From the IMG/VR virus record IMGVR_UViG_3300021519_000916, positions 32,001 to 96,000 of that record: DNA of 64,000 nucleotides; one strand, written 5' to 3'. The position numbers and the translations under genes are program-made. The stretch is from a virus. This document shows positions 1-37,990 of this stretch, one piece after another. Position 1 is the stretch's first letter. Each line of letters starts with the position of its first letter. Under the pieces are notes generated by a model, which did no database searches, was not told where the DNA came from, and saw only the letters and a program-made list of their open reading frames with translations.

Positions 1-1
1 G

Positions 2-340
2 ATTGAAGGTGCAGTTGAAACAAATACGACAAGTGTGCTTGGCATTACTGGAACTCGTAGTGTCAAAGGTTTCCCTACATTGGCCAGCCAAGGCATCAAG
101 GGATTTGAAAACGCCAGTACCAATACTGTCATTGTTGCCAGTGCCGAAATGCCTGCGGAAAAAGTTCGAGAATTATACGAACTGCTACGTGTAGCAAATC
201 GAGCACCGGATGTACAAGCTGGCTATGCTAGAGAGTATTCGACTCCGGCAGACTTTACATGGCCTCAAACAGTTAGTTGGTTTAATCAGCAAGTTAAGTT
301 TTGGCGCGAACAGGCCGCAAAAGTTAAGCCACTACAATAA
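2..340 (+). CDS. Bug/TctC-family solute-binding protein, C-terminal part (5' truncated by window edge)
   Basis: Frame open from base 2; LGITG...FPTLASQG matches the C-terminal half of the Bug paralog at 7159-8064 (LGTTG...YPSLASQG). Confidence 0.75.
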   Translation: MEGAVETNTTSVLGITGTRSVKGFPTLASQGIKGFENASTNTVIVASAEMPAEKVRELYELLRVANRAPDVQAGYAREYSTPADFTWPQTVSWFNQQVKFWREQAAKVKPLQ

Positions 341-1479
341 TGAATAAGAAACTCGGTTACTACGTATGTGATGGTCAAGAATTTAATTCTAAGATCAATT
401 GTGCAATACATGCCACACAAGCAAATAAACCCATGTCTTGGGTTTTTAACAATGACGTCTTTTCTAATTACGATTTTAGTAAAGATCCAGAAGAAACATT
501 AGATGCTCTGTACGATCGCCGTGCTAGAGAAATTAGAGAAAAATACGATTATGTTGTGTTAAGCTACTCTGGGGGTTCCGACAGTCATAATATCTTAATG
601 TCATTTTATCGACAAGGATTACACATTGACGAAGTAATCAGTAACTGGGTATTTGAAGCTAGTAAAAAATTTACTATCATTGATTCTTTAGTTAACGATG
701 CATGGAATCAAAACGCCGAGTACGAGCTACATACCAAAGAACGCCTGCAATGGATCTATGATCATATGCCCACGACCAAGGTCACATTATACGATTGTGG
801 TAAACAAATTTATACGTATTTTAATAAGGCCAAAGACCCAACGTGGGTAACCGATCATGTTGAACCCTTGAACCCTGCGGCCACACAACGTTATAATCCG
901 TTACAAATTAAAGATATTCGTTTGCGTATAGACAAACAACATTCAATTGGATTTATAGTGGGTGTTGATAAACCCCTGAGTCTTATTGTTGACAACAAGA
1001 TGTATCTGCGTTTGCGGGATAAAACTGCAAACATTATTCCCAGCAGTATCTACACCAGCGAATACGATAACACCACGGTTGAGTACTTTTATTGGGCGCC
1101 TGAATCATGCGCTATGTTGGCCAAACAAGGACATACTATGCTCAAGCATTTGAACACCAATAAACAATACCAGTTGATTTGGAAACCTAGCCAGGTTGAA
1201 AACTTTAGAGCCGCACAAGAAACTCTGATGAGAAGTATAGTTTATACCACATGGGATGAGCAAAACTCATTTCAAACAAAGAAACCGACTAACGATTGGT
1301 ACAGTGAACTAGACTATTGGTTTACTGAACAATTCAGGAATACCCCCGCTGGCCGCAATTGGCAAGCAGGGGTAGACTATTTAGAAAATTCTGTTGATAA
1401 ATCTTTACAACTTACAACTGGAAAGAAGGGCTTGAAGGTTTTCTTCTCACCCCTTTACTATGTTGGCGATGTTGTTTAG
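340..1479 (+). CDS. PP-loop (adenine nucleotide alpha-hydrolase superfamily) enzyme
   Basis: LSYSGGSDS PP-loop motif; GVDKP and EYFYW motifs shared with paralogs at 8074 and 9393; TAATG coupling to the upstream Bug gene. Confidence 0.75.
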   Translation: MNKKLGYYVCDGQEFNSKINCAIHATQANKPMSWVFNNDVFSNYDFSKDPEETLDALYDRRAREIREKYDYVVLSYSGGSDSHNILMSFYRQGLHIDEVISNWVFEASKKFTIIDSLVNDAWNQNAEYELHTKERLQWIYDHMPTTKVTLYDCGKQIYTYFNKAKDPTWVTDHVEPLNPAATQRYNPLQIKDIRLRIDKQHSIGFIVGVDKPLSLIVDNKMYLRLRDKTANIIPSSIYTSEYDNTTVEYFYWAPESCAMLAKQGHTMLKHLNTNKQYQLIWKPSQVENFRAAQETLMRSIVYTTWDEQNSFQTKKPTNDWYSELDYWFTEQFRNTPAGRNWQAGVDYLENSVDKSLQLTTGKKGLKVFFSPLYYVGDVV

Positions 1480-2501
1480 TCTTTACGACGTTCAATAATA
1501 CGTTTTACTAAGTTTATATCGATACCCATGACTTCAACATGGCGATAGCTTAGTTTTGCTCGCTTCCGTAACAACACCTGGTCTTCTTCAGACAAGTCAA
1601 TGATTGTAACACCATTGGCTACAGCATCGCGTTCGTATTTTTCAGCATCTGCAACAGACCACTCACGTTCGATCTTAGCTACACGCTTTGCGGCAACCAT
1701 AAATGCATTACGTTGTTCTTCTGTTAAACTATCTAAGAACTTAGTACCAGTTAAGATAGTTGTCATGAAAATACTGTGATTTGTTTTTAATACGTGCTTA
1801 CCAGTAAAGCGAATGTATGTAGTTTCAATAGCCATGCCGTCATCTACACCTTCAGCTAAACTAGCGTTAGCAACTTCAGAGCGACGTAGGATTGGAGTTC
1901 CAAAACCATCGCCAAACAATACTTCGCTTGGACGATTAGCAACGATCAGATCTGTTTGTGCTAAATCACTAAGATTGCTTAGACCATTTGTGCTACCGAT
2001 AATGCGATAACCACCGGAGTAAGTAAATGCTAAACCACGAATCTTTTCATTTTCTAGGCCTTTGCATAGCTCGTCACCAATTTCGCCATCTAGTACACGA
2101 CTAACGTGATCGTGACTGTCAAACAAGAATGGTAAGTCTAATGCGGCAAAGTCTTTGTTCTTTAATTGTTCGGCAACTGTGAATACTTGAGTTTGGCTCA
2201 TTTCAAAATCGCCGGCACGTAACGCATCAAAGAATGTTGTCCATTTTTGTTGCATATCTCTAATGTGGCCAACGGTATGTTCACTAGTACTATCTTCTAG
2301 ACCAGGAATGCTTGGCTTTCTAAGACGCAGAGCTTCCGATTTTTGGTATTGATCAACGTATGAATCAATAGTGTGAATTTCAAGTTCAAATTGTCCCGGG
2401 CACAAAGTTTCTAGTTCGCGGCCAAATGCTTCGGCAGTTCTTTGAAATAGGTGTACCGGAAAGTGTGCAATTAACCAACGTATTTTTCTACGGTCAGACA
2501 T
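1476..2501 (-). CDS. DctP-like TRAP solute-binding protein without signal peptide
   Basis: LDLPFLF, GLAFTYSGGYR and SLTEEQR motifs of the DctP fold; start set at ATG 2501, which has an AGGAG SD. Confidence 0.75.
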   Translation of the reverse strand: MSDRRKIRWLIAHFPVHLFQRTAEAFGRELETLCPGQFELEIHTIDSYVDQYQKSEALRLRKPSIPGLEDSTSEHTVGHIRDMQQKWTTFFDALRAGDFEMSQTQVFTVAEQLKNKDFAALDLPFLFDSHDHVSRVLDGEIGDELCKGLENEKIRGLAFTYSGGYRIIGSTNGLSNLSDLAQTDLIVANRPSEVLFGDGFGTPILRRSEVANASLAEGVDDGMAIETTYIRFTGKHVLKTNHSIFMTTILTGTKFLDSLTEEQRNAFMVAAKRVAKIEREWSVADAEKYERDAVANGVTIIDLSEEDQVLLRKRAKLSYRHVEVMGIDINLVKRIIERRKD

Positions 2502-2529
2502 ATTTGTATCTCCTGAGGATTTAAACATA

Positions 2530-2536
2530 TATTTAT
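2530..2536 (-). promoter_or_regulatory. Putative late promoter (ATAAATA)
   Basis: TAAATA box about 30 nt upstream of the dctP-like start; the motif recurs before many genes. Confidence 0.55.
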
Positions 2537-2566
2537 GCTTGACCGTAGTCAAATGCCAAAAATACC

Positions 2567-3325
2567 TTAAACTTCCTTGTATATTTTAAGAATTTCAAGT
2601 ACAGCTGGATGTCGTTGTATGTCCTTGTTGGCAAATTCAACTCCCGACACAAACTTACATTCACGATACTCATCTACTAAACGTGTAAAATCTAACAAAC
2701 CGTTATCAGCTTCTTTTCGGTCTGCTTGGCGAGTGTCTCCTGTGATAATCATCTTAGACGCTTCACCCAATCGTGTGAGTAACATTTTCATTTGACTTGG
2801 TGTTGCGTTTTGCATCTCATCTGCAATAATCCAAGATTTCTTAAATGTTCTGCCCCTCATATATGCCAGTGGAGAAATCTCAATTGTTTGATCATCTAGC
2901 ATTTTTACGATTTCGCTTTGTCTATAATACTCCCCAATGACGTCAAATATTGGTCTAGTCCATGGTGCCATTTTTTCATTTAGCGTACCCGGTAAGAAAC
3001 CGTGTTGTTCATCATCTACCCCAACTGCTGGTCTAGTTATAACTATACGTTCGACTTCTCCGGATCTGTAGGCTTTCAAGGCCGCAAGGACCGCAAGCAT
3101 AGTTTTACCCGTACCTGCTGGACCTGTGGCAAATATAATTAGCCGTTTAGGATCAGTTAGTTGATCGATGTATTTTTCTTGTGTTAGACTTTTTGGGAGA
3201 AGAGAAATTGGACGTTGCTGTTGTTGCTGTGGTTTTCGATATAAGTCCAATCTTACTGCGTTGTTACTAGTGAAGTTACTGTTGATTGTTAGAGCATCTG
3301 CTCTACGTTGTTGCCGTTTGGACAA
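2567..3325 (-). CDS. phoH: PhoH-family ATPase
   Basis: GPAGTGKT Walker A, GFLPG, LAYMRGRT, DEMQN, GDTRQAD, RHP; TTG start with AGGAGG SD. Confidence 0.95.
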   Translation of the reverse strand: MSKRQQRRADALTINSNFTSNNAVRLDLYRKPQQQQQRPISLLPKSLTQEKYIDQLTDPKRLIIFATGPAGTGKTMLAVLAALKAYRSGEVERIVITRPAVGVDDEQHGFLPGTLNEKMAPWTRPIFDVIGEYYRQSEIVKMLDDQTIEISPLAYMRGRTFKKSWIIADEMQNATPSQMKMLLTRLGEASKMIITGDTRQADRKEADNGLLDFTRLVDEYRECKFVSGVEFANKDIQRHPAVLEILKIYKEV

Positions 3326-3372
3326 GTGTGCCTCCTGTTAGTAGATTTGTAGATCAATTTTACCTACACAAA

Positions 3373-3379
3373 TATTTAG
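3373..3379 (-). promoter_or_regulatory. Putative late promoter (CTAAATA) for phoH
   Basis: TAAATA box in the intergenic region upstream of phoH. Confidence 0.5.
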
Positions 3380-3436
3380 GCGCAAACTTGTTTATTTTAT
3401 ACGACCTGTTTATGGTCGAAAAACCAACATAAATAA

Positions 3437-4171
3437 TTAACTATGAGTGAGACACTGGTACGCAAAGTACAGACGCTCGTTGGTATCCTTCTTAAACTCC
3501 AATAGTTTCAAATTATACTTTTCAGCAAACTCGTTTACTATTTCAAATGTCCACGGAAAAATATCTACATACGGGCCAGTCTTGTGCGGAATACCAGGAT
3601 TGGCTCTTAGATAAAATTTCCCCCCGGGTGCAAGCAACTCTATGCAATGTGCAAATCTAGCTTCAATGTCATCTCGACTATTAAAGTTTATGGACCCCAA
3701 TGCAATAATGTGATCGTGTTTACGTGTCACTTTATAGTCAAGAATATCTACCATATAGTCAGCACAATTGTTATAGGGATCAATGCCTATTAGATTATCA
3801 ATTTTCCCTTTAAACGGATGATATCCGCAGCCAACATCCAACACGTTTTGTGGACCTTGTTTTTGAATTTCATCTGCTAGACCCCAACCAGTGTAGTCGT
3901 AATCCCCTGTGCGTGGTTTCCATATTTCACTAAAGAATCGATGAATGTATCTCTCACTTAAATCATCTACTACTTCTTTTAATGTACCTCGGTATTCACA
4001 GGGTAAACATAACTCAGCTTCAACAGCATCTTTAAACTTGCGATAACGTGCTGGTGTCCATGGCAGGTCCTCTACTATAGTATCTTCATTAATAGCAATA
4101 TGTTGATATTTTGGTAGGCTAAATGCACCATATAAATTTTGGGAGATTAAGTTAAAAATTTTAGTATTCAT
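3437..4171 (-). CDS. Class I SAM-dependent methyltransferase with an N-terminal ACP-like helical domain
   Basis: VLDVGCG, IGID and LAPGG motifs; the N-terminal ~75 aa resemble an acyl-carrier fold without the DSL serine. Confidence 0.8.
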   Translation of the reverse strand: MNTKIFNLISQNLYGAFSLPKYQHIAINEDTIVEDLPWTPARYRKFKDAVEAELCLPCEYRGTLKEVVDDLSERYIHRFFSEIWKPRTGDYDYTGWGLADEIQKQGPQNVLDVGCGYHPFKGKIDNLIGIDPYNNCADYMVDILDYKVTRKHDHIIALGSINFNSRDDIEARFAHCIELLAPGGKFYLRANPGIPHKTGPYVDIFPWTFEIVNEFAEKYNLKLLEFKKDTNERLYFAYQCLTHS

Positions 4172-4188
4172 TGATTTTTTTCTATTAG

Positions 4189-4252
4189 ATAAATAATTTT
4201 TACAGAAACATAAGAAATTTTTATGTCTGACTGTTTTTCTATAAGTATTTAA
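4189..4252. promoter_or_regulatory. Face-to-face late promoters: ATAAATA (+, 4189-4195) and TTAAATA (-, 4246-4252)
   Basis: TAAATA boxes on both strands between divergent genes, with an ACATAA/TTATGT inverted repeat between them. Confidence 0.45.
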
Positions 4253-4267
4253 TCAAAGGATAGCTCA

Positions 4268-5221
4268 ATGAAAAAATTAGTAGCCATATTACTACTTGTG
4301 CCACTGTTAGCATTTGCGTGGGAACCAAAAAAGCCAATAACTGTTATATTTCCAAATGGTCCCGGTGCCGGAAACGAAATTAGTTTTAGATTTGTGGCAA
4401 GTATAGTAGAAAAGAAAACTGGCAGTAGTTTTGTGTCAGAATATCGCCCAGGCGCCGATGGTAATGTTGCAATGAATCATTTTGCCACTGCGCCGGCTGA
4501 TGGATATACTGTTGCTGTTCCTGCTTGCCAAAGTAACTGGGTAACTGCAGAGGTTTGGTATAGCAATATATTAAAATATGATGCTCAAGAATTTGAGCCG
4601 GTTGCTAATATTGCACGTAGCCCTTTGGCATTTTGGGCAACCCCAAAAAGTAATATCAACAATCCAAGAGAACTGGTTGATGCTATTAAGAATAGCAACC
4701 GTCCAATCACATTTGCAATTGGTGGTGGCGGACATAGATTAGCGGTAGAATATCTGGCGGAACGTTTAGGTATCCCGAATAGCAGAATAACAGTGGTAAT
4801 GTATAAAGGTCCAGCACAAGCATTATTAGATGTTATGGGAGGACATGTAGAATTTGGTGTTACTCCAGTGGCAGTGGGGTGGCCCCAAGTGCAAGCCAAC
4901 AAACTAAAGTTAATTGGTATAGCCAACGAGCATCCACTTAAAGGATTAGAAAATGCTCCATTAATGAAAACTGTTGCTCCGGGTTTGTTTATACATGGAT
5001 GTTGGAACATAGTATTGCCAAAAGGTACACCAGCTGATGTACAAGCGTGGTATCGCGATCAATTTGTACCTGCTATTAGAAGTAATGAAGCCCAAGAAAA
5101 GTTTGTGGACAATATGATGTTTATTACACCAACAGAACATACCCCGGAAGGTGTCAGGGCAAGTATGGCCCGTTTGCGACAAGTATGGCAACCAATTGCT
5201 AAAAAGGTAAACCCAGAATGA
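4268..5221 (+). CDS. Bug/TctC tripartite tricarboxylate transporter substrate-binding protein
   Basis: Signal peptide MKKLVAILLLVPLLAFA; WEPKKPIT..P..PG, RPGADG, APADGYT, YKG..AL.DV.GGHV, PKGTP motifs. Confidence 0.92.
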   Translation: MKKLVAILLLVPLLAFAWEPKKPITVIFPNGPGAGNEISFRFVASIVEKKTGSSFVSEYRPGADGNVAMNHFATAPADGYTVAVPACQSNWVTAEVWYSNILKYDAQEFEPVANIARSPLAFWATPKSNINNPRELVDAIKNSNRPITFAIGGGGHRLAVEYLAERLGIPNSRITVVMYKGPAQALLDVMGGHVEFGVTPVAVGWPQVQANKLKLIGIANEHPLKGLENAPLMKTVAPGLFIHGCWNIVLPKGTPADVQAWYRDQFVPAIRSNEAQEKFVDNMMFITPTEHTPEGVRASMARLRQVWQPIAKKVNPE

Positions 5222-5820
5222 AATATATTTTTATAGCTGGTGCGCCCGGTTCAAAATGGTCCAGTGTAGCTCTTAATATCTATTATAGTCCAGATGTTGA
5301 CCGCAGTGATGCACAAGCCAATCGAAACTATAGTCGCAACGGCACAGTCATGCATGTGGGCGGTTACTTTGATCCTGGTATGGAATTTGGCGATTGGTTT
5401 GATCAGTTAGATAAACATACCCAAGAAGAATGTGAAGCAGAATTTGATCGGCCGTTTACAGGTGAGGGGGTGCGTATTATCAAGAGTCATATGTTTATGT
5501 ATCATATTGGGTTCCTAAAACAAAACTGGTCCGATGCCCCTATCATTATGGTACACCGGGGTGATGATGCTTCTTTAGGATGGTGGGTGCGGTCTGGTGG
5601 ATTTGACATCACTTACCCCGACTATCAACCCTACTATAAAGATTTAGACTTTATGTCAGAGGAAATCACAAGACAAAATGCGGCCATGCGTCCTCACTGG
5701 GATTTGGGAAGTTTTGTCTACAATAATCTTGAGCTGTGTGACCAAATTGGCATTGCCCTGCCCCCACCTGAATATAAGCAAAACTACGCCGATAATAAAA
5801 TAAGGGTAAAAGTATTATGA
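5218..5820 (+). CDS. P-loop fold protein, sulfotransferase/kinase-like
   Basis: FIAGAPGSKWSS P-loop-like start, IIKSH and MVHR motifs typical of sulfotransferase folds; ATGA overlap with the Bug gene. Confidence 0.5.
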   Translation: MKYIFIAGAPGSKWSSVALNIYYSPDVDRSDAQANRNYSRNGTVMHVGGYFDPGMEFGDWFDQLDKHTQEECEAEFDRPFTGEGVRIIKSHMFMYHIGFLKQNWSDAPIIMVHRGDDASLGWWVRSGGFDITYPDYQPYYKDLDFMSEEITRQNAAMRPHWDLGSFVYNNLELCDQIGIALPPPEYKQNYADNKIRVKVL

Positions 5821-5826
5821 CACAAG

Positions 5827-5833
5827 CTAAATA
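5827..5833 (+). promoter_or_regulatory. Putative late promoter (CTAAATA)
   Basis: TAAATA box followed by a GACG-ATATC-CGTC hairpin and an AAGGA SD. Confidence 0.55.
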
Positions 5834-5891
5834 ACTGTAGCACTTCGACGATATCCGTCACACACCCCAAAAAAACAATAAGGAATTCTAT

Positions 5892-6371
5892 ATGAAAACA
5901 ACAAAAATTCGCTGGGTAATCGCTCACGAACCGCTAGATCTTTTTATCCGTGCCGCTAAGGATTTCCAAGACTTTTTAAATGCCTCACAGTCGGCTGAAG
6001 AAATTGAAGTAGAAGTAATGACACTAAGTGAGTATTCTACAAAGTATAAAAACGGCGAAACAGTTACCAAGCACGATTTGCTAGACCTAATAGAGTCCGG
6101 TGAAATTGAAATGAGCCAAATGTACACAACCTGGCTGGCAGAAAACTTTAATCACGATATGTTAGCATTAGAAATGCCATTCCTATTTGAAAATCACGAA
6201 CATGCAACTCGTGTACTAGAAGGTGAAGTTGGCGAATATCTATTAGATAAAACAACTGAAAATTCAAATGTGCGCGGCCTAGCGTTTACATATTCGGGTG
6301 GTTTCCGTAATGTACTATCAAACAAAAAAGTTAATAATCTAAAAGGTCTAACTGGTGAAGATCAGAACTAA
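5892..6371 (+). CDS. DctP-like protein, N-terminal half (split gene)
   Basis: KIRWVIAHEP, LEMPFLF and GLAFTYSGGFR align with the intact paralog at 1476-2501. Confidence 0.7.
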   Translation: MKTTKIRWVIAHEPLDLFIRAAKDFQDFLNASQSAEEIEVEVMTLSEYSTKYKNGETVTKHDLLDLIESGEIEMSQMYTTWLAENFNHDMLALEMPFLFENHEHATRVLEGEVGEYLLDKTTENSNVRGLAFTYSGGFRNVLSNKKVNNLKGLTGEDQN

Positions 6372-6849
6372 TCGTAATCCTGTAGCACAAGAAACTTTTC
6401 GAGCACTAGGTGTGGAGTCGGAAGACATCCACATCTGTGAAATTGAAGATCTTGCTGAGCATATTAAGTCTGGCGAATGTGATGCCGGCGAAGGTGTATA
6501 CAGTCGTGTGTATCCGTTAAAACAAAATGAAGTTACCAAAAGCGTTATTGATAGTAAACATAGTTTGTTTCTTACCACCATGATTATTGGCAATACATTT
6601 TATGAAAAGTTAAGCCCGGAAGTACGTGCTATTATCAAAGAAGCGGCATTAGATGCTGGACGTAAAGAACGTTTAAAAACTATTGAAGATGGCGAGCAGG
6701 CCAAACAAAAATTGATCAACGAAGGTGTTAACATACACAATCTAACACCAGAAGAACTTGCCGAGTGGAAAGAAAAGACTCAAGTTGTTTACGACAAATT
6801 TGAACCTACCTTTACACCAGGATTAGTTGACAAAATCAAACGCAGTTAA
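6355..6849 (+). CDS. DctP-like protein, C-terminal half (split gene)
   Basis: KIR...FRALG, HSLF and KLSPEVR continue the DctP fold in the +1 frame; GTG start with AAGGT 7 nt upstream. Confidence 0.7.
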   Translation: MKIRTNRNPVAQETFRALGVESEDIHICEIEDLAEHIKSGECDAGEGVYSRVYPLKQNEVTKSVIDSKHSLFLTTMIIGNTFYEKLSPEVRAIIKEAALDAGRKERLKTIEDGEQAKQKLINEGVNIHNLTPEELAEWKEKTQVVYDKFEPTFTPGLVDKIKRS

Positions 6850-6861
6850 TTTTACCAAATG

Positions 6862-6902
6862 ATTGAGTAGGTATTTACATCCTACTCAATTTTCTGTATA
6901 AT
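6862..6902 (+). terminator. Terminator hairpin overlapping a sigma70 promoter
   Basis: ATTGAGTAGG/CCTACTCAAT stem plus T run; TTTACA (6874-79), 17 nt, TATAAT (6897-6902). Confidence 0.65.
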
Positions 6903-6925
6903 CTATAAATCAATTAGGAAATTTA

Positions 6926-7162
6926 ATGTTTAAAACTCAAATATCTGAGCGCATTCCGCGTTCTCTGGCAAAAGTCATAACATGGCGAATCTTGGTAACA
7001 ATTACAAACTTTCTCGGTGGATGGCTAGCCAGCGGCAATCCCTGGGTCGGCCTAGGTGTTGTTAGTTTTGCTCTGGTAGTAAACAGTATACTGTATTTCT
7101 TTCACGAACGTGCATGGAATCGCACAGACTGGGATAGATCAATCAATGAGGAATCAAGATGA
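6926..7162 (+). CDS. DUF2061-family small membrane protein
   Basis: RSLAKVITWR...YFFHERAW signature and two hydrophobic segments. Confidence 0.85.
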   Translation: MFKTQISERIPRSLAKVITWRILVTITNFLGGWLASGNPWVGLGVVSFALVVNSILYFFHERAWNRTDWDRSINEESR

Positions 7163-8064
7163 AAAAGATTTTAGCTACATTACTAATGGCTTTTGCACTC
7201 ACAGCACAGGCCAAAGAAACAATTACAATTATTTACGGGTTTAGTGCGTCTGATAACTCAGCAAACTATTCACGTAATTTAGCCAACGAAGCAAACAGCC
7301 AACAAACCAAGTATAAATTTTTATTTGATGTTAGGCCAGGCGGCGGTCAAGCAGTTGCAGTAAATCATGTAAAAAATACACGGAACACTATTTTTATGAC
7401 ATCCGGCGCATTTTGGTTACGTCCAGTTTTTTATCCTAACGAAAGTTGGGACGTTAACGAATGGCGCACGATCATGACACAATGTAGCGCACCATTTAGT
7501 GTGGCCAGCGTAAAATATAAGTCATGGAATGATGTACCAAAAAATCAACCATTGACTATCGCAACAAGTGGTATGGGTGTATTCAGCCATATCATTGCTT
7601 TACAAATTGTAGAACGATATCCAAACATGACTTTAATCCCATTTAAGTCCACGGTAGAAGGTATGTTGGCCGTTGTTAGTGGGCAAGTTGATTTTGCTGT
7701 TGGCTTCGTGGGCGATCAAGAAAATTGGACTCACGAAGAAACTAAGACTCGTTTAAATATTCTCGGAACCACTGGTAATGGTGCTGGAAAATATCCTAGT
7801 TTAGCAAGCCAAGGCTTTCCGCAGGTTCTAACTAAGTTAGATACACCATATAACTTAATGGTTCCAAAGTCGTTTGATGCAGGCAAGGCAAAAGAAATCC
7901 GCGATATACTTGCTAAGGCCGAAACAGCAACAAGTGTACGTAAAAGTTATGCATTAGATTTTTGTGCGCCTATATCTATTCCAGAGAATAAATTAAATGC
8001 TTGGTTTGACGAACAGAATAAAACTATACGCAATACCACAAAAGGGTTAACTATTACTCAATGA
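7159..8064 (+). CDS. Bug/TctC-family solute-binding protein (divergent)
   Basis: Signal peptide MKKILATLLMAFALTAQA; RPGGGQAVA and IPFKS...AVVSGQVD motifs. Confidence 0.8.
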   Translation: MKKILATLLMAFALTAQAKETITIIYGFSASDNSANYSRNLANEANSQQTKYKFLFDVRPGGGQAVAVNHVKNTRNTIFMTSGAFWLRPVFYPNESWDVNEWRTIMTQCSAPFSVASVKYKSWNDVPKNQPLTIATSGMGVFSHIIALQIVERYPNMTLIPFKSTVEGMLAVVSGQVDFAVGFVGDQENWTHEETKTRLNILGTTGNGAGKYPSLASQGFPQVLTKLDTPYNLMVPKSFDAGKAKEIRDILAKAETATSVRKSYALDFCAPISIPENKLNAWFDEQNKTIRNTTKGLTITQ

Positions 8065-8073
8065 TGCAAATTT

Positions 8074-9393
8074 ATGAATAAATTCGAACACACCACTGTT
8101 GCTGATGTGGCTCACGACTCAAATAAAAAGTTAGGTTATTATCTTTTTAATAATCAAATTTATTATAATAAAATGCAAGTGTTACTAGAAGCATCTAAAA
8201 CATCCAAAGACAACGTAAATAAATCACCAGAGGACGACATTAAATGGTTCTTCAATAATGACGTATTCATGAAATTCCCATGGCATGTGGAACCCGAAAC
8301 GCCACTTACTGAACTGTATCGTATACGGGCGCAACAACTCAGGGATCAATATGATTATATACGGGTTGAGGCATCAGGTGGGTCCGACAGTAGTACTGTA
8401 GTTTATAGCTTTTTACTTAACAACATTCACATAGATGAAATAGTATTTAGATATCCCAAGATTGGTGAGAAGGGAGTTTCTAATACTGCGCGATTTACCC
8501 AGTGTGAAAATACTCTAAGTGAATACGAATTTGCTACCAAACCAATGCTTAATTGGATTGCTACTAATTATCCTAAAGTTAAAATCACAATCTACGATTA
8601 TAGTGAAGACATGATTGCAAACGCAGATCGCGCCGACGAGTCATGGATATTTAAAACTAGACACTATTTACAGCCCGGACATGCATATAAAAATTCCTTA
8701 ACAGGCTTCACAGAACATCGAAGATTAGCAGACTCCGGTATCAACATTGGCGTCATATACGGCGTAGATAAACCCAAGATATGTATCAAAGATGGTAAGT
8801 TCTTTTTATATTTCTTTGACAGTTTAGCAAATTATAACAATCCAGATGTTGGCGATTATACAAATATAACCAATGAATATTTTTACTGGACTCCGGACAT
8901 GCCAGAGATACTTGCAAAACAAGCTCATATATGTAAGTATTGGTTTAGTATGCCGGAACATTATCAATTTCAAAAAACCCTGCATTGGCCTAATATGGAC
9001 TTTGCCGCTAGAAACTTATATGAGCAATTAGTCAAGGGAATTGTATATCCAGACTACGACCCAAATACATTCCAGGTTGCTAAACCCAGCAATAATATAT
9101 ACAACGAAATGGACCATTGGTTCCATGTCAACTTCAAAAATACCAAAGCATATAACGTATGGGAAGCCGGCATTAATCACCTACTAACTAACTTTCACGA
9201 GTCGTATATAAAAATGGACATACATGGTAGGGCATCAAATATTCAAGAATTTATGAGCCCGTTTTACTATGTTGGGGACAGTGACATTCCTGAGATTGGA
9301 GTAATAAAGAATAGAGAATTTATATCCAATAGTCGTTTACCAGTTTCTCAGAGACATGTGCATTTTATAAAAAACAAAATGGTAATTTATTAA
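8074..9393 (+). CDS. PP-loop (ANH superfamily) enzyme, tandem paralog 1
   Basis: EASGGSDS, GVDKP, EYFYW. Confidence 0.75.
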   Translation: MNKFEHTTVADVAHDSNKKLGYYLFNNQIYYNKMQVLLEASKTSKDNVNKSPEDDIKWFFNNDVFMKFPWHVEPETPLTELYRIRAQQLRDQYDYIRVEASGGSDSSTVVYSFLLNNIHIDEIVFRYPKIGEKGVSNTARFTQCENTLSEYEFATKPMLNWIATNYPKVKITIYDYSEDMIANADRADESWIFKTRHYLQPGHAYKNSLTGFTEHRRLADSGINIGVIYGVDKPKICIKDGKFFLYFFDSLANYNNPDVGDYTNITNEYFYWTPDMPEILAKQAHICKYWFSMPEHYQFQKTLHWPNMDFAARNLYEQLVKGIVYPDYDPNTFQVAKPSNNIYNEMDHWFHVNFKNTKAYNVWEAGINHLLTNFHESYIKMDIHGRASNIQEFMSPFYYVGDSDIPEIGVIKNREFISNSRLPVSQRHVHFIKNKMVIY

Positions 9394-10694
9394 TGAAAAT
9401 TGAACATACACAGGTCGCCGGCGTTACTTTAGAATCAAATAAAAAGTTAGGGTATTATCTGTTTGATGACCAAGTGTACTATAATAAATTTCATGTACTA
9501 CTAGAATCATCCAAAACTGAAAAGAATAAACCACTAAACGATGCAGTTAAATGGTTCTTCAATGATGACGTATTCATGAAATTCCCATGGCACGTAGAAC
9601 CCAAAACATCAATGCAAGAACTATATCGTATGCGGGCCCAGCAACTCAGGGACCAATACGATTATATACGAGTTGAAGCGTCTGGCGGAGGAGATAGTAC
9701 TACTGTAGTCTATAGTTTTTTACTTAATAATATTCATTTAGACGAAGTTGTTTTTAGATATCCCAAAACCGGAGAGAATGGTGTGTCCGGAGATGCATGG
9801 GCAACTAACTGTGAGAATACCCTGAGTGAGTGGGAATATGCTGCAAAACCATTGCTTAATTGGATCGCTACTAACTACCCCAAGGTTAAAATTACAGTAC
9901 ATGATTATAGCGAAGACATGATTAAAAATGCTGACCGTGCCGACGAGTCATGGATATTTAAAACTAGACATTACCTGCAACCGGCACATGCACATAAACA
10001 CTCCACTACAGGATTTATTGAACATCGCAGGTTGGCCGATACCAATTCTAAAATTGGTATAATATACGGAATTGACAAACCCAAGTTATGCATTAAAGAC
10101 GGTAAGTTCTTTTTATATTTCTTTGATAACTTGGCGAATCACAATAACCCCGACGTTGGCGATTATACAAATATAACCAATGAGTTTTTCTATTGGACTC
10201 CGGACATGCCGGAGATAGTGGCCAAACAAGCTCACATGTGTAGGCATTGGTTTAGCATGCCGGAACATTATCAATTCCAGCGCACACTACTTTGGCCCAA
10301 TATTGACTTTTCTGCTAGAAGCTTATACGAACAACTAGTAAAAACCATTGTATACCCAGATTATGATTGCAATACATTCCAAGTAGCTAAACCAAGTAAT
10401 AACATATACAACGAAATGGATCATTGGTTCCATGTCAACTTCAAGAATACCAAAGCATATAATGTGTGGGAAGCTGGCATTAATCACTTGTTAAACAACC
10501 TTAATGAAAATTATATACATCTAGTTAACGGAAAACAAACAAATATTAAAGAATTTATGAGCCCGTTTTACTACATAGGGGAATGTAATATACCAAGCAT
10601 GGGCGTATTACAAAACAAAGCGTTAATGGATAAAGCCAGGGCAATGGCTACAAAACACGTACACTTTATAAAGAATAAGATGGTAATTTATTAA
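9393..10694 (+). CDS. PP-loop (ANH superfamily) enzyme, tandem paralog 2
   Basis: EASGGGDS, GIDKP, EFFYW; long near-identical blocks shared with 8074-9393. Confidence 0.75.
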   Translation: MKIEHTQVAGVTLESNKKLGYYLFDDQVYYNKFHVLLESSKTEKNKPLNDAVKWFFNDDVFMKFPWHVEPKTSMQELYRMRAQQLRDQYDYIRVEASGGGDSTTVVYSFLLNNIHLDEVVFRYPKTGENGVSGDAWATNCENTLSEWEYAAKPLLNWIATNYPKVKITVHDYSEDMIKNADRADESWIFKTRHYLQPAHAHKHSTTGFIEHRRLADTNSKIGIIYGIDKPKLCIKDGKFFLYFFDNLANHNNPDVGDYTNITNEFFYWTPDMPEIVAKQAHMCRHWFSMPEHYQFQRTLLWPNIDFSARSLYEQLVKTIVYPDYDCNTFQVAKPSNNIYNEMDHWFHVNFKNTKAYNVWEAGINHLLNNLNENYIHLVNGKQTNIKEFMSPFYYIGECNIPSMGVLQNKALMDKARAMATKHVHFIKNKMVIY

Positions 10695-10718
10695 CCAACT
10701 CAATGCTCGCATATTTCG

Positions 10719-10725
10719 ATAAATA
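10719..10725 (+). promoter_or_regulatory. Putative late promoter (ATAAATA); nearly leaderless downstream gene
   Basis: Box 8 nt upstream of ATG 10734, no SD. Confidence 0.55.
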
Positions 10726-10733
10726 ATTGTACT

Positions 10734-11264
10734 ATGCCAGCAAATATTAAAGATTTACTAAAAAATACACAAGACATTTTCATGACAGATTCTGCTGTCA
10801 GCACCCTATTAGACTTTGAACGGGTGTTAGATGAGCTTGATTTATACGCATTTGCCAATTGGAAGCAAGGCGAATTAGTCGAAGGTCCCACATACGAAAA
10901 GTACTTTGTAAAATGCACTTTTATGTGGCCCTACAAAAAAATGCCCGATCCCCGTGGCGCACAAAGACTGTCTGAATACGATTGTGATATTACATTTGAA
11001 CGTGACTTCTTTGAACACCCTATTAAAGTAAAAAGCCCAAACGACTATAAGCCCGGAACAAAAGTTCCTAAAATGGTCAAGAGCCCCATATGGCTAGTTG
11101 ACATTGTTATGCCTAAGAAGTTAATGGCAGACATTGAAAAAGGTGCTTTAGAACTTGAATCGGGCACAATTGATATGGAAGACATTAATCAAGCATACGA
11201 AACCGGTGCTGATAATGATGCTATAGACCAAGAGGAACAAATCAATGACCAACCAACACAGTAA
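10734..11264 (+). CDS. Hypothetical phage protein
   Basis: 176-aa ORF with typical codon usage and an acidic tail. Confidence 0.7.
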   Translation: MPANIKDLLKNTQDIFMTDSAVSTLLDFERVLDELDLYAFANWKQGELVEGPTYEKYFVKCTFMWPYKKMPDPRGAQRLSEYDCDITFERDFFEHPIKVKSPNDYKPGTKVPKMVKSPIWLVDIVMPKKLMADIEKGALELESGTIDMEDINQAYETGADNDAIDQEEQINDQPTQ

Positions 11265-11805
11265 CCTATTTGAGGGTCTAGAAGTTGGCGACTTAAAGCG
11301 GTTAATCCACCCCGAATTACATATTGACGAATTTAAAAGCAAGTTAGGCGACGATGCCGACGTTGTTGTTGTTAGTTTTAAAGTTGACAGTAAAGATCCA
11401 GCAATTGATTTAGTGGCATTCATTGAAAAAGGCTACAGCTGGGTCATTGATGCCGATGTTAGTTCCGGCGAACTTGAAGATGGTTCATATATTGTATTTG
11501 TTGAGATGGATCGTGATGCCGACGCTCCAAAAAATATTATGCAGTTAATGGATGAATTATTGAATTTAACAGAGCAAGATGAAAGCGACTGGCGAGTGCG
11601 CTATTATAAATCTCGTCAAGAAAAGCAATTAAGCCTTGATGCGTTAGAAGAACTTGTGCCAACTACACCAGAAGCCTACGAAAAGGCCCATGGTCAGTCT
11701 GATATTGATCAGTTAAAGACTGCTGCTGGTATAAATGTAACTACTAAAGCACCTAAAAACGACTTTACAGAATCTTTACGTAATCTAGCTGGCATTGCAC
11801 GTTAG
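11245..11805 (+). CDS. Hypothetical phage protein (acidic)
   Basis: 186-aa ORF with GAGGA SD, overlapping the previous gene. Confidence 0.7.
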   Translation: MTNQHSNLFEGLEVGDLKRLIHPELHIDEFKSKLGDDADVVVVSFKVDSKDPAIDLVAFIEKGYSWVIDADVSSGELEDGSYIVFVEMDRDADAPKNIMQLMDELLNLTEQDESDWRVRYYKSRQEKQLSLDALEELVPTTPEAYEKAHGQSDIDQLKTAAGINVTTKAPKNDFTESLRNLAGIAR

Positions 11806-11810
11806 TACTA

Positions 11811-11818
11811 TATAAATA
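11811..11818 (+). promoter_or_regulatory. T4-type late promoter TATAAATA for the lysis cassette
   Basis: Exact T4 late consensus upstream of the endolysin SD (AAGGAG). Confidence 0.75.
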
Positions 11819-11843
11819 CTGAGTATCTACTAAGGAGATAAAC

Positions 11844-12470
11844 ATGAGCTTCGATTTCAATTTCACTAAAGAAAAGTTAGCAAAAATTATTACAGGTAAC
11901 CAATACGTAGACCATTGGTTTGACGCACTGAACACTATATTACCAGATTATGAGATTACCTCATTGAATCGTGTTGCGGCATTTATAGCGCAGACAGCCC
12001 ATGAATCCGGCAACTATAAAGCATTAAAAGAGAATTTAAATTATCAGGCCGCATCTTTGTGTAAGGTATGGCCAAGGTTATTTCCAACAATGGAAATAGC
12101 AAATCAATACGCACATAAGCCAGAGATGATTGCTAATCGTGCCTACGCAGATCGTATGGGCAATGGTAACGAAGCAAGCGGCGACGGGTGGAGACATTGC
12201 GGACGTGGACTTATCCAACTAACCGGTAAGGCAAACTATACTGCATTTGCAGAAAGTATTGAAACACCAGTGGATGAATTAGTTGAATTTTTACAGACCT
12301 TTGAAGGCGCTGTACAATCAGCTTGCTGGTTCTGGGAAACTAATAACTTAAACCAATGGGCAGACAAAGGTGATATGCTTACGTTAACTAAACGTATCAA
12401 TGGCGGCACATTGGGACTTGACGATCGTATTAAACATTATAACCATGCATTAGAAGTGCTAGGCGCCTAA
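11844..12470 (+). CDS. Endolysin, glycoside hydrolase family 19
   Basis: AAFIAQTAHESG, ENLNY, GRGLIQLTGK.NY, TKRINGG..GL.DR. Confidence 0.95.
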   Translation: MSFDFNFTKEKLAKIITGNQYVDHWFDALNTILPDYEITSLNRVAAFIAQTAHESGNYKALKENLNYQAASLCKVWPRLFPTMEIANQYAHKPEMIANRAYADRMGNGNEASGDGWRHCGRGLIQLTGKANYTAFAESIETPVDELVEFLQTFEGAVQSACWFWETNNLNQWADKGDMLTLTKRINGGTLGLDDRIKHYNHALEVLGA

Positions 12471-12935
12471 ATGTTTGGATGGTTAGTTGAACACGCACTA
12501 TTAATAATTCCAACTTGGGCATGGTTGGCACTTGCTGTTGCTGGCGCAGTAGTATATTATCTCAGCGGATTTATTCTAGCATTTCCACAATTTAAGCCAT
12601 ATGGCATATTAGTTAAAGTAGTCGGAGTACTGGCATTACTTGGCGGAGTATTCATGACCGGCGGCGAAGGAGTTACAGCTATATGGCAACAACAAATTAA
12701 AGAATCAAACGAACGTATTGCTATAGCCGAAGCGCAAAGCAAAGAAGTTAATGTTAAGATAGTGGAAAAGGTTGTTAAGCAATTAGAAGTAGTGCATCAA
12801 AAGGGCGCTGAAGTTATAAAGTATGTGGATCGCGAAGTTACCAAATACGATAATACCTGCCCTGTTCCTGATGTGGTAGTCAAGGCACACAATGCGGCCG
12901 CATTAAATCAATCAATTGAAAAGGATAAGAAATGA
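12471..12935 (+). CDS. Inner-membrane spanin (Rz-like)
   Basis: N-terminal TM segments, coiled coil, C-terminal Cys; lies between the endolysin and a lipoprotein. Confidence 0.7.
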   Translation: MFGWLVEHALLIIPTWAWLALAVAGAVVYYLSGFILAFPQFKPYGILVKVVGVLALLGGVFMTGGEGVTAIWQQQIKESNERIAIAEAQSKEVNVKIVEKVVKQLEVVHQKGAEVIKYVDREVTKYDNTCPVPDVVVKAHNAAALNQSIEKDKK

Positions 12936-13198
12936 AATACTTACTAATCCTGGTTACAATTATGCTAACAGCATGTGCATCTACAGTACCAACCATAGCT
13001 AAATTTCCCGAAGTGCCATCGCAACTATTAGAGAAGTGCCCACCATTAAAAACAATACCAACAGAAACAACAGTATTCAGCGAGTTAACTAAAACAGTTA
13101 CAGTTAACTACACAACATATTATGAATGTGCAATAAAACAAGAAGCATGGGCTGAATGGTTCAATACTCAGAAGAAAATATACGAGAGTTTAAAATGA
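12932..13198 (+). CDS. Outer-membrane spanin lipoprotein (Rz1-like)
   Basis: Lipobox LTAC, Pro-rich P..LL..CP.L and Y.EC motifs. Confidence 0.8.
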   Translation: MKYLLILVTIMLTACASTVPTIAKFPEVPSQLLEKCPPLKTIPTETTVFSELTKTVTVNYTTYYECAIKQEAWAEWFNTQKKIYESLK

Positions 13199-13608
13199 AA
13201 AAATTAATATACGTAGCCTTGTTTTCGTTGTTGTCTGGATGTGCAAGTATTCAAAATATATACGAAGCATATACAATGGCTAAGTTTGATGTTAACGAGT
13301 ATCAATACATCACACGTATACGTACACACGCACAGCTAGGTGGTCCATTGTGTGGAACACCCGACGTTAAAGAACATGTTAAGTATATTTTTGTAGTGGC
13401 ACAAGAATATAAAAACTACGCAGAATTAATACCCAACAATCAAAACAGTTTTAAATTAGCAACAACGCTAACGCAAATTACTGATGAATTTGCTAAAAAA
13501 TATCAAGGTGCAGAAACACCGAGTGTTGTATATTGCAAGGCTAAATTTATGGCTATCGAACGTTCAAGTGAGAACATACAAAAGGTTATAGGAGCCAAGC
13601 CAAGATGA
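13195..13608 (+). CDS. Lipoprotein of unknown function in the lysis cassette
   Basis: MKKLIYVALFSLLSGC lipobox; ATGA overlap at 13195. Confidence 0.7.
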   Translation: MKKLIYVALFSLLSGCASIQNIYEAYTMAKFDVNEYQYITRIRTHAQLGGPLCGTPDVKEHVKYIFVVAQEYKNYAELIPNNQNSFKLATTLTQITDEFAKKYQGAETPSVVYCKAKFMAIERSSENIQKVIGAKPR

Positions 13609-13868
13609 ACGCACAACAAATTTTAGATGGCATTTACGGAACACAAACACAAGACCCCATTGCACAGCAATTAGCAGGGGTATTAGCACAATACACCCAA
13701 CAATTTCAAGCAGGGCAGATGAGCAAAGACGAATACGCTGAACTAGTAAGAGATTTACAAACAGAACAACTAATTAATGCTCAGTGTAGTGACTTAGAAG
13801 CCAAAGAACGGTTAAATACAATATGTAATGCAGTATTAAATGCAGTGGACATACTAAGTAGCATATAA
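13605..13868 (+). CDS. Hypothetical helical protein
   Basis: 87-aa ORF, translationally coupled, GGAG SD. Confidence 0.65.
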   Translation: MNAQQILDGIYGTQTQDPIAQQLAGVLAQYTQQFQAGQMSKDEYAELVRDLQTEQLINAQCSDLEAKERLNTICNAVLNAVDILSSI

Positions 13869-13892
13869 AAATAATTCAAATAGGAGCTAATA

Positions 13893-14393
13893 ATGAGCGA
13901 AGTAAGCGAAAGCGAAAAGAAAAAAGAAGATTGGATGAATAGCAAATGGCGTCCAATGATGGGCTGGATGTACATGTCAGTATGTGTGTTTGACTTTGTA
14001 TTGGCCCCAATTTTATGGTCAATGTTACAAGCAGTATTTCACGGCGGGGTAAACGTACAATGGCAACCACTAACATTGCAAGGTGCTGGTTTATTCCACA
14101 TTGCGATGGGTGCTGTCCTTGGTATTGCGGCAATGGGTCGTACACAGGAAAAATTAGCAGGTGCTAATAATGGCGGAGCAGGCGGTACATCATATACTGC
14201 GCCAGCACCAATTAGCAGCCCATCACCAAGTACAAGTGCTCCGCCGGCACCAAGCTGGGGGACAACGCCGGTGGCAAGTCCATTCCCGAGTGCTCCGGTA
14301 GCAAGTCCATTTCCAAGTGCTCCGGTGGCTACGCCATTGATGAGTTCGTCTGGTAAGTTGGCACCACAGCCGGCACAAGATCCGGTACTATAA
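13893..14393 (+). CDS. Putative holin (3TM/GTA-holin-like) with a Pro/Ser-rich tail
   Basis: WRP.MGW.Y motif, hydrophobic segments, G..A.GRT.EK; located in the lysis cassette. Confidence 0.7.
   Translation: MSEVSESEKKKEDWMNSKWRPMMGWMYMSVCVFDFVLAPILWSMLQAVFHGGVNVQWQPLTLQGAGLFHIAMGAVLGIAAMGRTQEKLAGANNGGAGGTSYTAPAPISSPSPSTSAPPAPSWGTTPVASPFPSAPVASPFPSAPVATPLMSSSGKLAPQPAQDPVL
14268..14330 (+). repeat. 27-nt tandem repeat (PVASPFPSA, two full copies plus a partial)
   Basis: ccggtggcaagtccattcccgagtgct / ccggtagcaagtccatttccaagtgct / ccggtggct. Confidence 0.9.
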
Positions 14394-37579: not shown

Positions 37580-37990
37580 ATGGCACATTGGACTGTATCT
37601 ACTGCGGAAAAGAAATCCTGTGAAGAGCGGGAGATTTGGACTAAAGGTAACAAAACTATTGTTCGTATTAACGGATTTCGTTGGGGTACATTTAGTGTAG
37701 AAACCAATGATGATAATCCGCCGGACGGAATTACTGCTGAGAACGAAGACAGCATTGATATGTATAGTCACTGCGGAGACAACATTGATACTATTGACCT
37801 AATATCAATGGACGATGGCTGGTACGGTGATTTTGAGTTTATTGGGTTTGAAGGAGACGAAGAACAAGAGATCCTTGATGCTATAGACGAAGCAGATGAC
37901 TATTACGAATACCTAGAGGAAAACGGTTGGTCTAATGACGACACCGAAGGCTGGTTGCATGGTTCACTTGAAATCACAAAGGACGCATGA
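37580..37990 (+). CDS. Highly acidic hypothetical protein
   Basis: AAGGAG SD; Asp/Glu-rich C-terminal half. Confidence 0.7.
   Translation: MAHWTVSTAEKKSCEEREIWTKGNKTIVRINGFRWGTFSVETNDDNPPDGITAENEDSIDMYSHCGDNIDTIDLISMDDGWYGDFEFIGFEGDEEQEILDAIDEADDYYEYLEENGWSNDDTEGWLHGSLEITKDA

Follow-up and report, generated by a model that had tools for sequence, protein, structure and literature searches.

Phage gene pairs of solute-binding receptors and PP-loop enzymes as a candidate system for capturing organic acids

Most bacterial genes for Bug (TctC) proteins, solute-binding receptors of the tripartite tricarboxylate transporter (TTT) type, are described in the part of the source cited here as orphans that share a few TctAB permeases and often lie beside enzymes using the imported carboxylate (PMC5812351). 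The gene bug69, for instance, stands in an operon with nadC and its product binds quinolinate, the substrate of NadC, and BugD and BugE bind aspartate and glutamate (PMC11452294, in the excerpts used). Since an orphan Bug gene with a ligand-consuming enzyme and a distant, shared TctAB is the usual bacterial arrangement according to these partial sources, the absence of a transporter beside a Bug gene is not odd in itself. Here we describe a phage module of comparable layout in a window of 64,000 nucleotides (the whole stretch of DNA that was analyzed), which comprises bases 32001–96000 of one 136,506-bp viral contig (IMG/VR record IMGVR_UViG_3300021519_000916; G000:C1 below). A sequence-only reading of the window had noted three Bug genes, each directly followed by an enzyme gene, together with three genes for PP-loop proteins carrying an SGGxDS motif; both observations are borne out, the motifs being SGGSDS, SGGSDS, and SGGGDS, and every gene that this reading named lies at the coordinates given. 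In searches of open-access full text, we came across no publication on a coupling of phage Bug or DctP genes to PP-loop enzymes, and no relevant literature on phage TctC or tripartite ATP-independent periplasmic (TRAP) binding proteins.

The phage genes share their layout with the bacterial combination of orphan Bug and enzyme, so that the simplest reading is the same logic operating on a virus. We hypothesize, with a probability of roughly 40% and by analogy with those bacterial clusters, that the genes form pairs for the capture and conversion of organic acids that run on a host permease. An exported Bug protein would bind one carboxylate in the periplasm and hand it to the host TctAB, and the cytoplasmic enzyme encoded directly after it would act on the imported acid. 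The PP-loop enzyme would activate the carboxyl group by adenylation and then transfer it to an amine, such as ammonia, and the resulting amide would trap the compound and commit it to a use needed by the phage. For one of the receptors (Bug_B), the same job would fall to a sulfotransferase-fold enzyme (ST200). The DctP-like proteins, which are TRAP-type binders predicted to be cytoplasmic, may hold the same or related acids, either as a sink or for hand-over to the enzymes; this is the least secure step. We infer all four central elements of the scheme, namely carboxylate ligands, the use of host TctAB, an enzyme substrate identical to the ligand of the neighboring receptor, and an amide product.

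Association of receptor and enzyme genes

The three pairs are encoded on the plus strand and are tightly packed. Bug_A (TctC family, 301 aa, G000:C1:31435-32340, of which the window holds the C-terminal 112 aa at 2-340) overlaps by 1 nt the gene of PPl_A (340-1479, 379 aa, SGGSDS, subfamily P4, family profile E 2e-141). Bug_B (4268-5221, subfamily B2, with a signal peptide, TctC E 5e-26) overlaps by 4 nt the gene of ST200 (5218-5820, 200 aa), whose sulfotransferase fold is suggested by a structure model. In the third group, a gene for a 78-aa DUF2061 membrane protein with two hydrophobic segments (6926-7162, plus strand, DUF2061 E 2.1e-14) overlaps by 4 nt that of the divergent Bug_C (7159-8064, subfamily B1, with a signal peptide, TctC E 9.7e-4, below cut-off). 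A spacing of 9 nt separates Bug_C from PPl_B (8074-9393, 439 aa, SGGSDS, subfamily P1), a PP-loop protein by motif and model, and a further 1-nt overlap leads into PPl_C (9393-10694, plus strand, 433 aa, SGGGDS), its tandem paralogue by motif and alignment.

We mapped the window proteins on 78 related viral loci, 62 of which were left after the removal of identical PP-loop protein sets. Matches were counted at BLAST E ≤ 1e-5 and genes within 300 nt were called directly adjacent; the counts are lower bounds, and several of the loci without either receptor gene are short or end near the PP-loop gene. A Bug or DctP gene was present in 52/62 loci and lay directly beside a PP-loop gene in 44/62. 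Counted by gene, 59/93 PP-loop genes directly adjoined Bug or DctP (37 Bug, 24 DctP), and 75/93 had one within 3 kb. A second sample, seeded with distant family members and searched with hidden Markov models in 6-kb flanks, comprised 65 distinct loci, 35 of which carried a Bug or DctP gene. Among its 109 PP-loop genes, 32 adjoined Bug, 14 DUF2061 (e.g. in L112, L116, L125, L149, L166, and L167), and three DctP; DUF2061 may be a further partner. The 16 second-sample records that were checked were all fragments of 4–44% completeness, and 12 of them contained a TctC gene.

Protein clustering resolved a core triad of one PP-loop, one DctP-like, and one Bug subfamily (P1, D1, and B1) that occurs in varying order, as well as fixed pairs: P1 stood with B1 in 21/25 P1 pairs, B4 or B6 was followed by P4 in 5/5, and B2 was followed by ST200 in 8/14. 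In three complete relatives (354–374 kb), most copies of all three families fell within ~16 kb. The clustering is far beyond chance, and the Bug/PP-loop adjacency first seen in the window is conserved across relatives and specific to subfamilies. One relative (G003) harbored a second site (C1:184896-186016) ~55 kb from its main module, where a distant PP-loop paralogue (184896-185186) lies beside a TctC gene (185264-186016, E 6.9e-49). Distances among Bug proteins were correlated with those among PP-loop proteins over 33 pairs (Mantel r 0.44, 0/2000 permutations as high) and over the 21 P1–B1 pairs (r 0.24, 13/2000 permutations as high). None of the three outcomes by which the sequence-only reading would have been refuted (cognate permeases elsewhere, no conserved adjacency in relatives, ordinary QueC or AsnB orthologues) was observed, and its claim of diversifying cognate pairs stands.

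These data bear directly on the possibility that receptors and enzymes have no functional link, act independently, and have merely gathered in an accessory-gene hot spot bounded by phoH and the lysis genes. Gene content and order vary greatly between relatives, many PP-loop genes have no Bug or DctP neighbor, and unrelated accessory genes share the region, all of which would suit such a hot spot. However, stop and start codons overlap within the pairs, the pairing is specific to subfamilies, and the same families recur together both in more distant phage fragments and at the second G003 site. We regard independence of the genes as unlikely.

Receptor families and their predicted compartments

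The Bug proteins differ in how closely they follow the TctC profile (PF03401, cut-off 27 bits): Bug_B scored 92.3 bits, Bug_A 28.1 bits (E 1.8e-6), and Bug_C, taken alone, 19.2 bits, under the cut-off. Solved relatives of Bug_B include 2dvz (E 2.4e-24), Bug27 (1.9e-21), and BugD (2.7e-19). A 32-sequence profile of the Bug_A and Bug_C subfamilies matched solved TTT receptors over their full length (E 2.9e-20 to 5.4e-15), among them 7ndr (E 2.9e-20), a terephthalate-binding protein (7.8e-19), and BugD (7.9e-16); the consensus of these subfamilies has a conserved N-terminal loop, but a different one. In the GenBank phage collection, Bug_B matched only a few short or bacterial-looking records at <26% identity. 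A TctC match in a related fragment (G014:C1:10252-11019) contains two in-frame TGA codons, which could reflect either gene decay or recoding.

All three window Bug proteins start with a classic leader, e.g. MKKLVAILLLVPLLAFA; the N-terminus of Bug_A reads MIKRLLLTALLALSTTAFA. A hydrophobic leader was present in 60/60 distinct Bug open reading frames (ORFs) of the related loci and in 34/38 of the second, more distant sample; of the four exceptions, three show a leader that falls slightly under the threshold (calls made with a Kyte–Doolittle hydrophobicity window and inspection, not SignalP). Given this signal peptide, the Bug proteins are predicted to be exported to the periplasm.

The DctP-like proteins show the opposite pattern. 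Both DctP-like genes listed in the sequence-only reading are present, but only one is intact, the other consisting of two overlapping ORFs. DctP_B (1476-2552, minus strand, subfamily D2, no signal peptide, DctP E 5.6e-23) is convergent with PPl_A, with a 4-nt overlap, and the same convergent arrangement of P4 and D2 recurs in L034 and L064. DctP_C is made up of an N-terminal half (5892-6371, plus strand, 159 aa, no signal peptide, DctP E 6.6e-16, profile positions 35–135 of 286) and a C-terminal half (6355-6849, plus strand, 164 aa, GTG start, DctP E 3.1e-28, profile positions 138–284 of 286). A further member, DctP_A, is encoded upstream of the window. Against DctP (PF03480), the window ORFs scored 82.1, 58.9, and 99.4 bits and the upstream protein 152.8 bits, all above cut-off. 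DctP_A reached E 1.6e-44 with DctP and E 8e-41 with NCBIfam TRAP_S1, and matched many solved TRAP receptors at about E 5e-22; in the GenBank phage collection it found only a few short or bacterial-looking records at <26% identity.

No leader precedes the receptor fold in these proteins. In 41 of 55 distinct DctP-like ORFs with an N-terminus in the first sample, no more than 12 residues precede the Trp that is conserved in the first strand, and the remaining 14 have an internal Met 5–9 residues ahead of it; in the second sample, 9/9 carry ≤12 residues ahead of this Trp (absence of a signal peptide was judged by a hydrophobicity window and inspection, not SignalP). For DctP_B, the likely start is the Met seven residues before the conserved Trp. 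The DctP-like proteins are thus predicted to stay in the cytoplasm, without the export feature of TRAP receptors. They still resemble ligand binders, as 20 positions are invariant among 44 DctP-like sequences and the arginine of the GGFR motif is retained. This arginine, which we take to be the residue clamping the ligand carboxylate in TRAP receptors, is kept in 37 of the 44 and replaced by Met in five, Lys in one, and Ile in one.

The split of DctP_C recurs in relatives. Its halves overlap by 17 nt in different frames; the N-terminal half ends in LKGLTGEDQN and a stop codon, and the C-terminal half starts (G/A)TG-AAG-ATC, reading MKIRTN. Split copies occur in L010, L011, L012, L016, L020, L045, L050, L062, L063, L070, and L074. 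The 11 distinct junctions in related loci are of two types, with either an overlap of 17–20 nt or an ATGA overlap, and in all 11 the C-terminal half has its own start codon; the halves measure ~160 aa. Unsplit orthologues of DctP_C were found in L042, L061, L081, and L083. A DNA contig from an independent study crosses 6321-6583 with zero differences, and a contig from a metatranscriptome library spans 6300-6646 free of gaps. The conserved junctions and the independent contigs over the site indicate that the split is real and maintained rather than an assembly error.

Neither receptor type is accompanied by a recognizable transporter. TctA, DctM, and DctQ were not found in the whole 136.5-kb contig at E ≤ 10, and TctA, TctB, DctM, and DctQ were not found at E ≤ 1 in five relatives, three of them 98–100% complete; control genomes gave matches in each permease search. 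The lack of such permeases in the window, already remarked on from the sequence, thus extends to the contig for TctA, DctM, and DctQ and to the five relatives for all four.

The predicted compartments also weigh on the proposal with which the sequence-only reading had framed the module, a synthase-plus-receptor system whose PP-loop enzymes make or alter a molecule that the neighboring binder senses, sponges, or passes to host sensors. Its cognate pairs hold up, being conserved and specific to subfamilies, and no permease is present. Cytoplasmic DctP-like proteins would share the compartment of the enzymes and could bind their products, and solute-binding proteins can also stimulate signaling proteins (PMC8050422, in the part cited). 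The notion that a neighbor senses the enzyme product finds no support in the topology: the Bug proteins carry export signals and the enzymes lack a signal peptide, so any product would have to leave the cell through an exporter. The module encodes no recognizable one, its only membrane protein being the 78-aa DUF2061 protein. Family scans also detected no sensor kinase or regulator in the module. We consider this proposal unlikely. A complex prediction for PPl_B with DctP_A returned a score of 0.00, which is no answer and no evidence either way.

PP-loop and sulfotransferase-fold enzymes

PPl_B and PPl_C are 77% identical, and PPl_A and PPl_B 35%. In 31 family members S101, G102, G103, D105, and S106 are invariant; 40 distant members all share G79 and D81, with S77, G78, and S82 present in ≥90% of them. 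Neither set contains an invariant cysteine. None of the three window proteins matched Pfam at E ≤ 10, and no NCBIfam or PHROG match was obtained; Asn_synthase (PF00733) was not matched by any of the 31 members at E ≤ 1, QueC (PF06508) was touched by 4/31 (best E 0.062), and ten distant members had no family-library match. Sequence searches of the Protein Data Bank with a single PP-loop protein or a profile gave nothing significant.

The family is large and essentially viral, with almost no members outside viral contigs. A word-indexed search returned 1202 proteins at E ≤ 1e-3, and the 120 listed had no Pfam domain and no name other than 'hypothetical protein'. Clustered at 50% identity, the family comprises at least 1707 clusters at E ≤ 1e-3 and 733 at E ≤ 1e-30. 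In a viral collection, 368 relatives were confirmed, and a second scan seeded with distant members confirmed at least 544. A set of one genome per species of bacteria and archaea yielded only three loci, all on contigs of metagenome-assembled genomes (MAGs), and the ESM Atlas only viral clusters, with minority QueC or Asn_synthase labels. PPl_B had no protein match in the GenBank phage collection, and no phage genome deposited there carries the family. Fused forms were absent among proteins of 770–2195 aa, which is weak evidence. One of the three MAG loci (L086, 3156 bp, binned as Methylococcaceae) has a DctP gene flanked by two PP-loop genes, just as in the phages; the contig is probably phage DNA that was assigned to a bacterial bin, or else it hints at a host lineage.

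An AlphaFold2 model of PPl_B (predicted local distance difference test (pLDDT) 85, predicted template modeling score 0.88) places the protein among PP-loop enzymes. Foldseek assigned probabilities of 0.97–1.0 to carbapenam synthetase, LarE, NAD synthetase (NadE), and GMP synthase (E 3e-4 to 3e-3), with carbapenam synthetase at E 3.4e-4 and an N-acetyl sugar amidotransferase (8wex) third at E 7.9e-4. With VIA, many PP-loop enzymes reached Z 6–10; human and E. coli asparagine synthetase B ranked best (Z 10.0 and 9.8 over 287 and 298 residues, root-mean-square deviation (rmsd) 5.8 and 5.3 Å, 8–9% identity), followed by beta-lactam synthetase (Z 8.8), carbapenam synthetase (Z 8.3), and TsnB9 (Z 7.9). 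Motif and modeled fold together support membership of the PP-loop ATP pyrophosphatase superfamily. At 8–9% identity and with no Pfam or NCBIfam match, the proteins are not ordinary orthologues of QueC or AsnB, in keeping with the sequence-only reading.

AsnB has an N-terminal glutaminase domain with an N-terminal cysteine. The phage proteins have ~75 residues ahead of the PP-loop domain and start MNKF, MKIE, or MNKK, a short N-terminal part without that cysteine, and hence have no glutaminase domain. QueC carries zinc-binding cysteines; the lack of a conserved cysteine in the phage family speaks against QueC-type zinc sites and against sulfur-transfer chemistry. QueC, LarE, and tRNA-thiolation readings are unlikely on this ground. 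The likeliest reaction would then be the formation of an amide, whether with ammonia, with an amine, or with an internal nucleophile.

For ST200, the sequence-only reading had proposed a sulfotransferase-like protein, an assignment that the fold supports and Pfam does not (Sulfotransfer_3, E 0.21). A model built from an eight-sequence alignment (pLDDT 79) had five sulfotransferases as its top VIA matches, namely TPST-1 (Z 10.2), a tick TPST (9.7), TPST-2 (9.7), Stf1 (8.8), and Stf9 (8.6), followed by P-loop kinases at Z 7–8; the best Foldseek match was also a sulfotransferase (E 0.015). The family alignment has invariant PGSKWS and KSH, which resemble the PAPS-loop and catalytic His motifs of sulfotransferases. 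To call ST200 sulfotransferase-like is reasonable, although the assignment is tentative.

The three best matches of ST200 (Z 9.7–10.2) are tyrosylprotein sulfotransferases, and this raises the possibility that the enzymes modify proteins or peptides, perhaps the neighboring binders before export. The PP-loop enzyme would then amidate or cyclize a carboxyl group of a side chain or terminus, ST200 would sulfate a tyrosine, and a 239-aa protein encoded upstream of the window would hydroxylate Asp or Asn. The 239-aa protein gives a lead in this direction, as Asp_Arg_Hydrox is found on 19% of the proteins in one of its nearest Atlas clusters. Amide bonds within a substrate are formed by beta-lactam and carbapenam synthetases, which are near the PP-loop fold, and an enzyme and its substrate protein would co-vary by subfamily just as the enzymes and Bug proteins do. 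Against this, the resemblances are at the level of the fold, no precursor peptide gene was noticed, many PP-loop genes have no Bug neighbor, and both the DctP-like and the Bug proteins keep the sequence features of ligand binders. Protein modification has little probability in our estimate.

Sugar acids offer a second alternative substrate. The binders would recognize uronic, aldonic, or nonulosonic acids, which the enzymes would amidate or sulfate, altering the host surface or building a phage-specific glycan. Among the best solved relatives of DctP_A (~E 5e-22) are 4n8y and 4x8r, which are bound to galacturonate and glucuronate according to the part of the source cited here (PMC11668362), and judging from these similarities the DctP ligands may well be sugar acids. 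The N-acetyl sugar amidotransferase at Foldseek rank 3 of the PP-loop model, the Stf-type glycolipid sulfotransferases matching ST200 (Z 8.6–8.8), and an NDP-sugar epimerase/dehydratase and a cytidylyltransferase-like protein encoded by the phage would all fit. However, DctP_A shares little identity with the uronate binders and is matched within a few bits by many TRAP proteins for other ligands, family scans detected no glycosyltransferase in the module, and the sugar genes lie 10–30 kb away from it. We consider envelope or glycan remodeling improbable.

Genomic setting and comparison with known systems

The module extends ~3 kb upstream of the window, where DctP_A, a 234-aa ferritin-like or di-iron-like protein, and the uncharacterized 239-aa protein are encoded on the plus strand (G000:C1:28944-31438; L007:8944-11438). 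The 234-aa protein has weak rubrerythrin and desaturase matches, below cut-off. Between DctP_B and Bug_B lie two genes on the minus strand, a PhoH-like ATPase (2567-3325, PhoH E 1.3e-67) and a class-I methyltransferase-like gene (3437-4171) containing VLDVGCG. The methyltransferase called from sequence is present but weakly supported (Methyltransf_23 E 0.0071, below cut-off); it is kept beside PhoH, with 11 homologous ORFs in related loci. PhoH stands beside the module in 17 ORFs of related loci and is a conserved left-hand landmark, probably outside the module proper. The presence of PhoH, the upstream extension, and the signal-less DctP-like proteins add to what the sequence-only reading had described. 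At the right-hand end, two conserved genes of 176 and 186 aa without a Pfam match (10734-11805, plus strand) recur in relatives as 15 ORF pairs ('y z') followed by lysis genes. The lysis region of the window (11844-14393, plus strand) lies directly 3' of the module and encodes a GH19-like endolysin (E 5.5e-5), an Rz1-like protein (E 3.4e-5, below cut-off), and a three-transmembrane holin of the gene-transfer-agent type (E 4.5e-8). Elsewhere, the window carries a ClpB-like double AAA+ ATPase (15552-17843), the cytidylyltransferase-like protein (20104-21120), a family B DNA polymerase (27647-30313), the NDP-sugar epimerase/dehydratase (37987-38958), and an AMP-binding (adenylate-forming) enzyme (42218-43294).

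CheckV rates the source contig as 39% complete, which at 136,506 bp implies a genome of ~350 kb; the three module-bearing relatives of 354–374 kb are 98–100% complete. A comparison of DNA polymerase B places Sinorhizobium phage Phosso (50.6% identity) and Agrobacterium phage Atu_ph07 (47.1%) closest among cultured phages, and ~355-kb phages of Yersinia, Erwinia, and Serratia share ~41%. The hosts of the nearest cultured phages and the weak Rz1-like match suggest a diderm host. At the DNA level, the window had no match in the GenBank phage collection. At least a fifth of the sampled words occurred in 24 listed public runs (12 studies) labeled lake-water, freshwater, or plain 'metagenome', and among four runs compared an independent freshwater DNA run matched 17/23 pieces at ≥99%; such phages are common in lake water. 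Regional GC is 36–40%; no tRNA genes were found in the window and no Rfam families in 1-12000. Contigs of a metatranscriptome library (X24) cover 1212-1427, 2280-2646, 6300-6646, 6950-7334, 7682-8204, and 10565-10835; DNA may be present in the library, so these contigs do not establish transcription and the uncovered stretches carry no meaning. Promoter-like and terminator-like sites are no commoner than in shuffled sequence (28 vs 40 and 10 vs 9, respectively). Among sigma-70-like sites in the region, the one at 6874-6902 in the gap before DUF2061 scores best (TTTACA, 17 nt, TATAAT; 11/12 matches).

Several points weigh against the capture and conversion of imported acids. About one-third of the PP-loop genes in the first sample and two-thirds in the second have no direct Bug or DctP neighbor, and either the enzyme can work without an adjacent receptor or divergent receptors were missed. 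The correlation between Bug and PP-loop distances is modest, and common phage descent alone could explain it. That the host possesses TctAB is assumed, and a cytoplasmic TRAP-type binding protein has no established uptake role, the weakest step of the scheme. The AsnB fold match is moderate (rmsd 5–6 Å, 8–9% identity) and speaks for the superfamily, not for the reaction. Finally, the best fold matches of ST200 act on proteins and the lead for the 239-aa protein is to Asp/Asn hydroxylases; these matches would suit protein or envelope substrates just as well as small acids.

A more specific version of the proposal would see the genes as expandable, cognate cassettes of receptor plus ligase: a Bug protein would select what is imported through the host permease, a cytoplasmic and sometimes split TRAP-type binder would receive it, and a virus-specific PP-loop ligase would turn it into a phage-specific amide. 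We consider this version doubtful. If true, such cassettes would represent a new class of viral metabolic take-over and give a TRAP-type binding protein its first role inside the cytoplasm. Even the general form of capture and conversion would mean that phage-encoded receptors for a host TTT permease, each wired to an enzyme, choose what an infected cell takes up and what it makes of it. The signal-less and stably split DctP-like proteins illustrate how a periplasmic receptor fold is put to new use inside the cell, and fixing the PP-loop reaction would annotate thousands of phage genes.

The superfamily of each part and the logic of an orphan Bug protein with an enzyme are already known from bacteria. 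New are the occurrence on a virus, in several diversified cassettes that lack a permease, the very large unannotated PP-loop family tied to Bug and DctP receptors, and the TRAP-type binding proteins apparently kept in the cytoplasm, one of them with a conserved split. Among described systems, the bacterial orphan Bug clusters (nadQ-nadC-bug69 of Bordetella and Achromobacter and the arylmalonate decarboxylase clusters) resemble the phage module most in the parts of the sources cited here: a Bug protein with a signal peptide is encoded beside a cytoplasmic enzyme thought to use the imported carboxylate, no TctAB is near, and the paralogues are many and diversified (PMC5812351, PMC11452294). The phage module differs in that the genes are viral, that no permease was found anywhere in the complete relatives, and that the partners are PP-loop and sulfotransferase-fold proteins together with signal-less DctP-like proteins. 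The PP-loop proteins share with AsnB and with beta-lactam and carbapenam synthetases the SGGxDS motif and an alpha/beta nucleotide-binding domain followed by a helical domain (Z 8.3–10.0), but at 8–10% identity, with no Asn_synthase match, no glutaminase, and a near-confinement to viruses. The DctP-like proteins match TRAP receptors in Pfam and NCBIfam above cut-off and mostly keep the GGFR arginine; unlike these, they have no signal peptide in any copy and no DctQM, and one lineage is stably split. A last parallel is the PstS of cyanophages, a phage-encoded periplasmic binding protein used with the host transporter. There, too, the phage contributes no more than a binding protein to an uptake system of its host, whereas the receptors described here are of the TTT and TRAP rather than the ABC type, and occur as several paralogues, each coupled to an enzyme gene.

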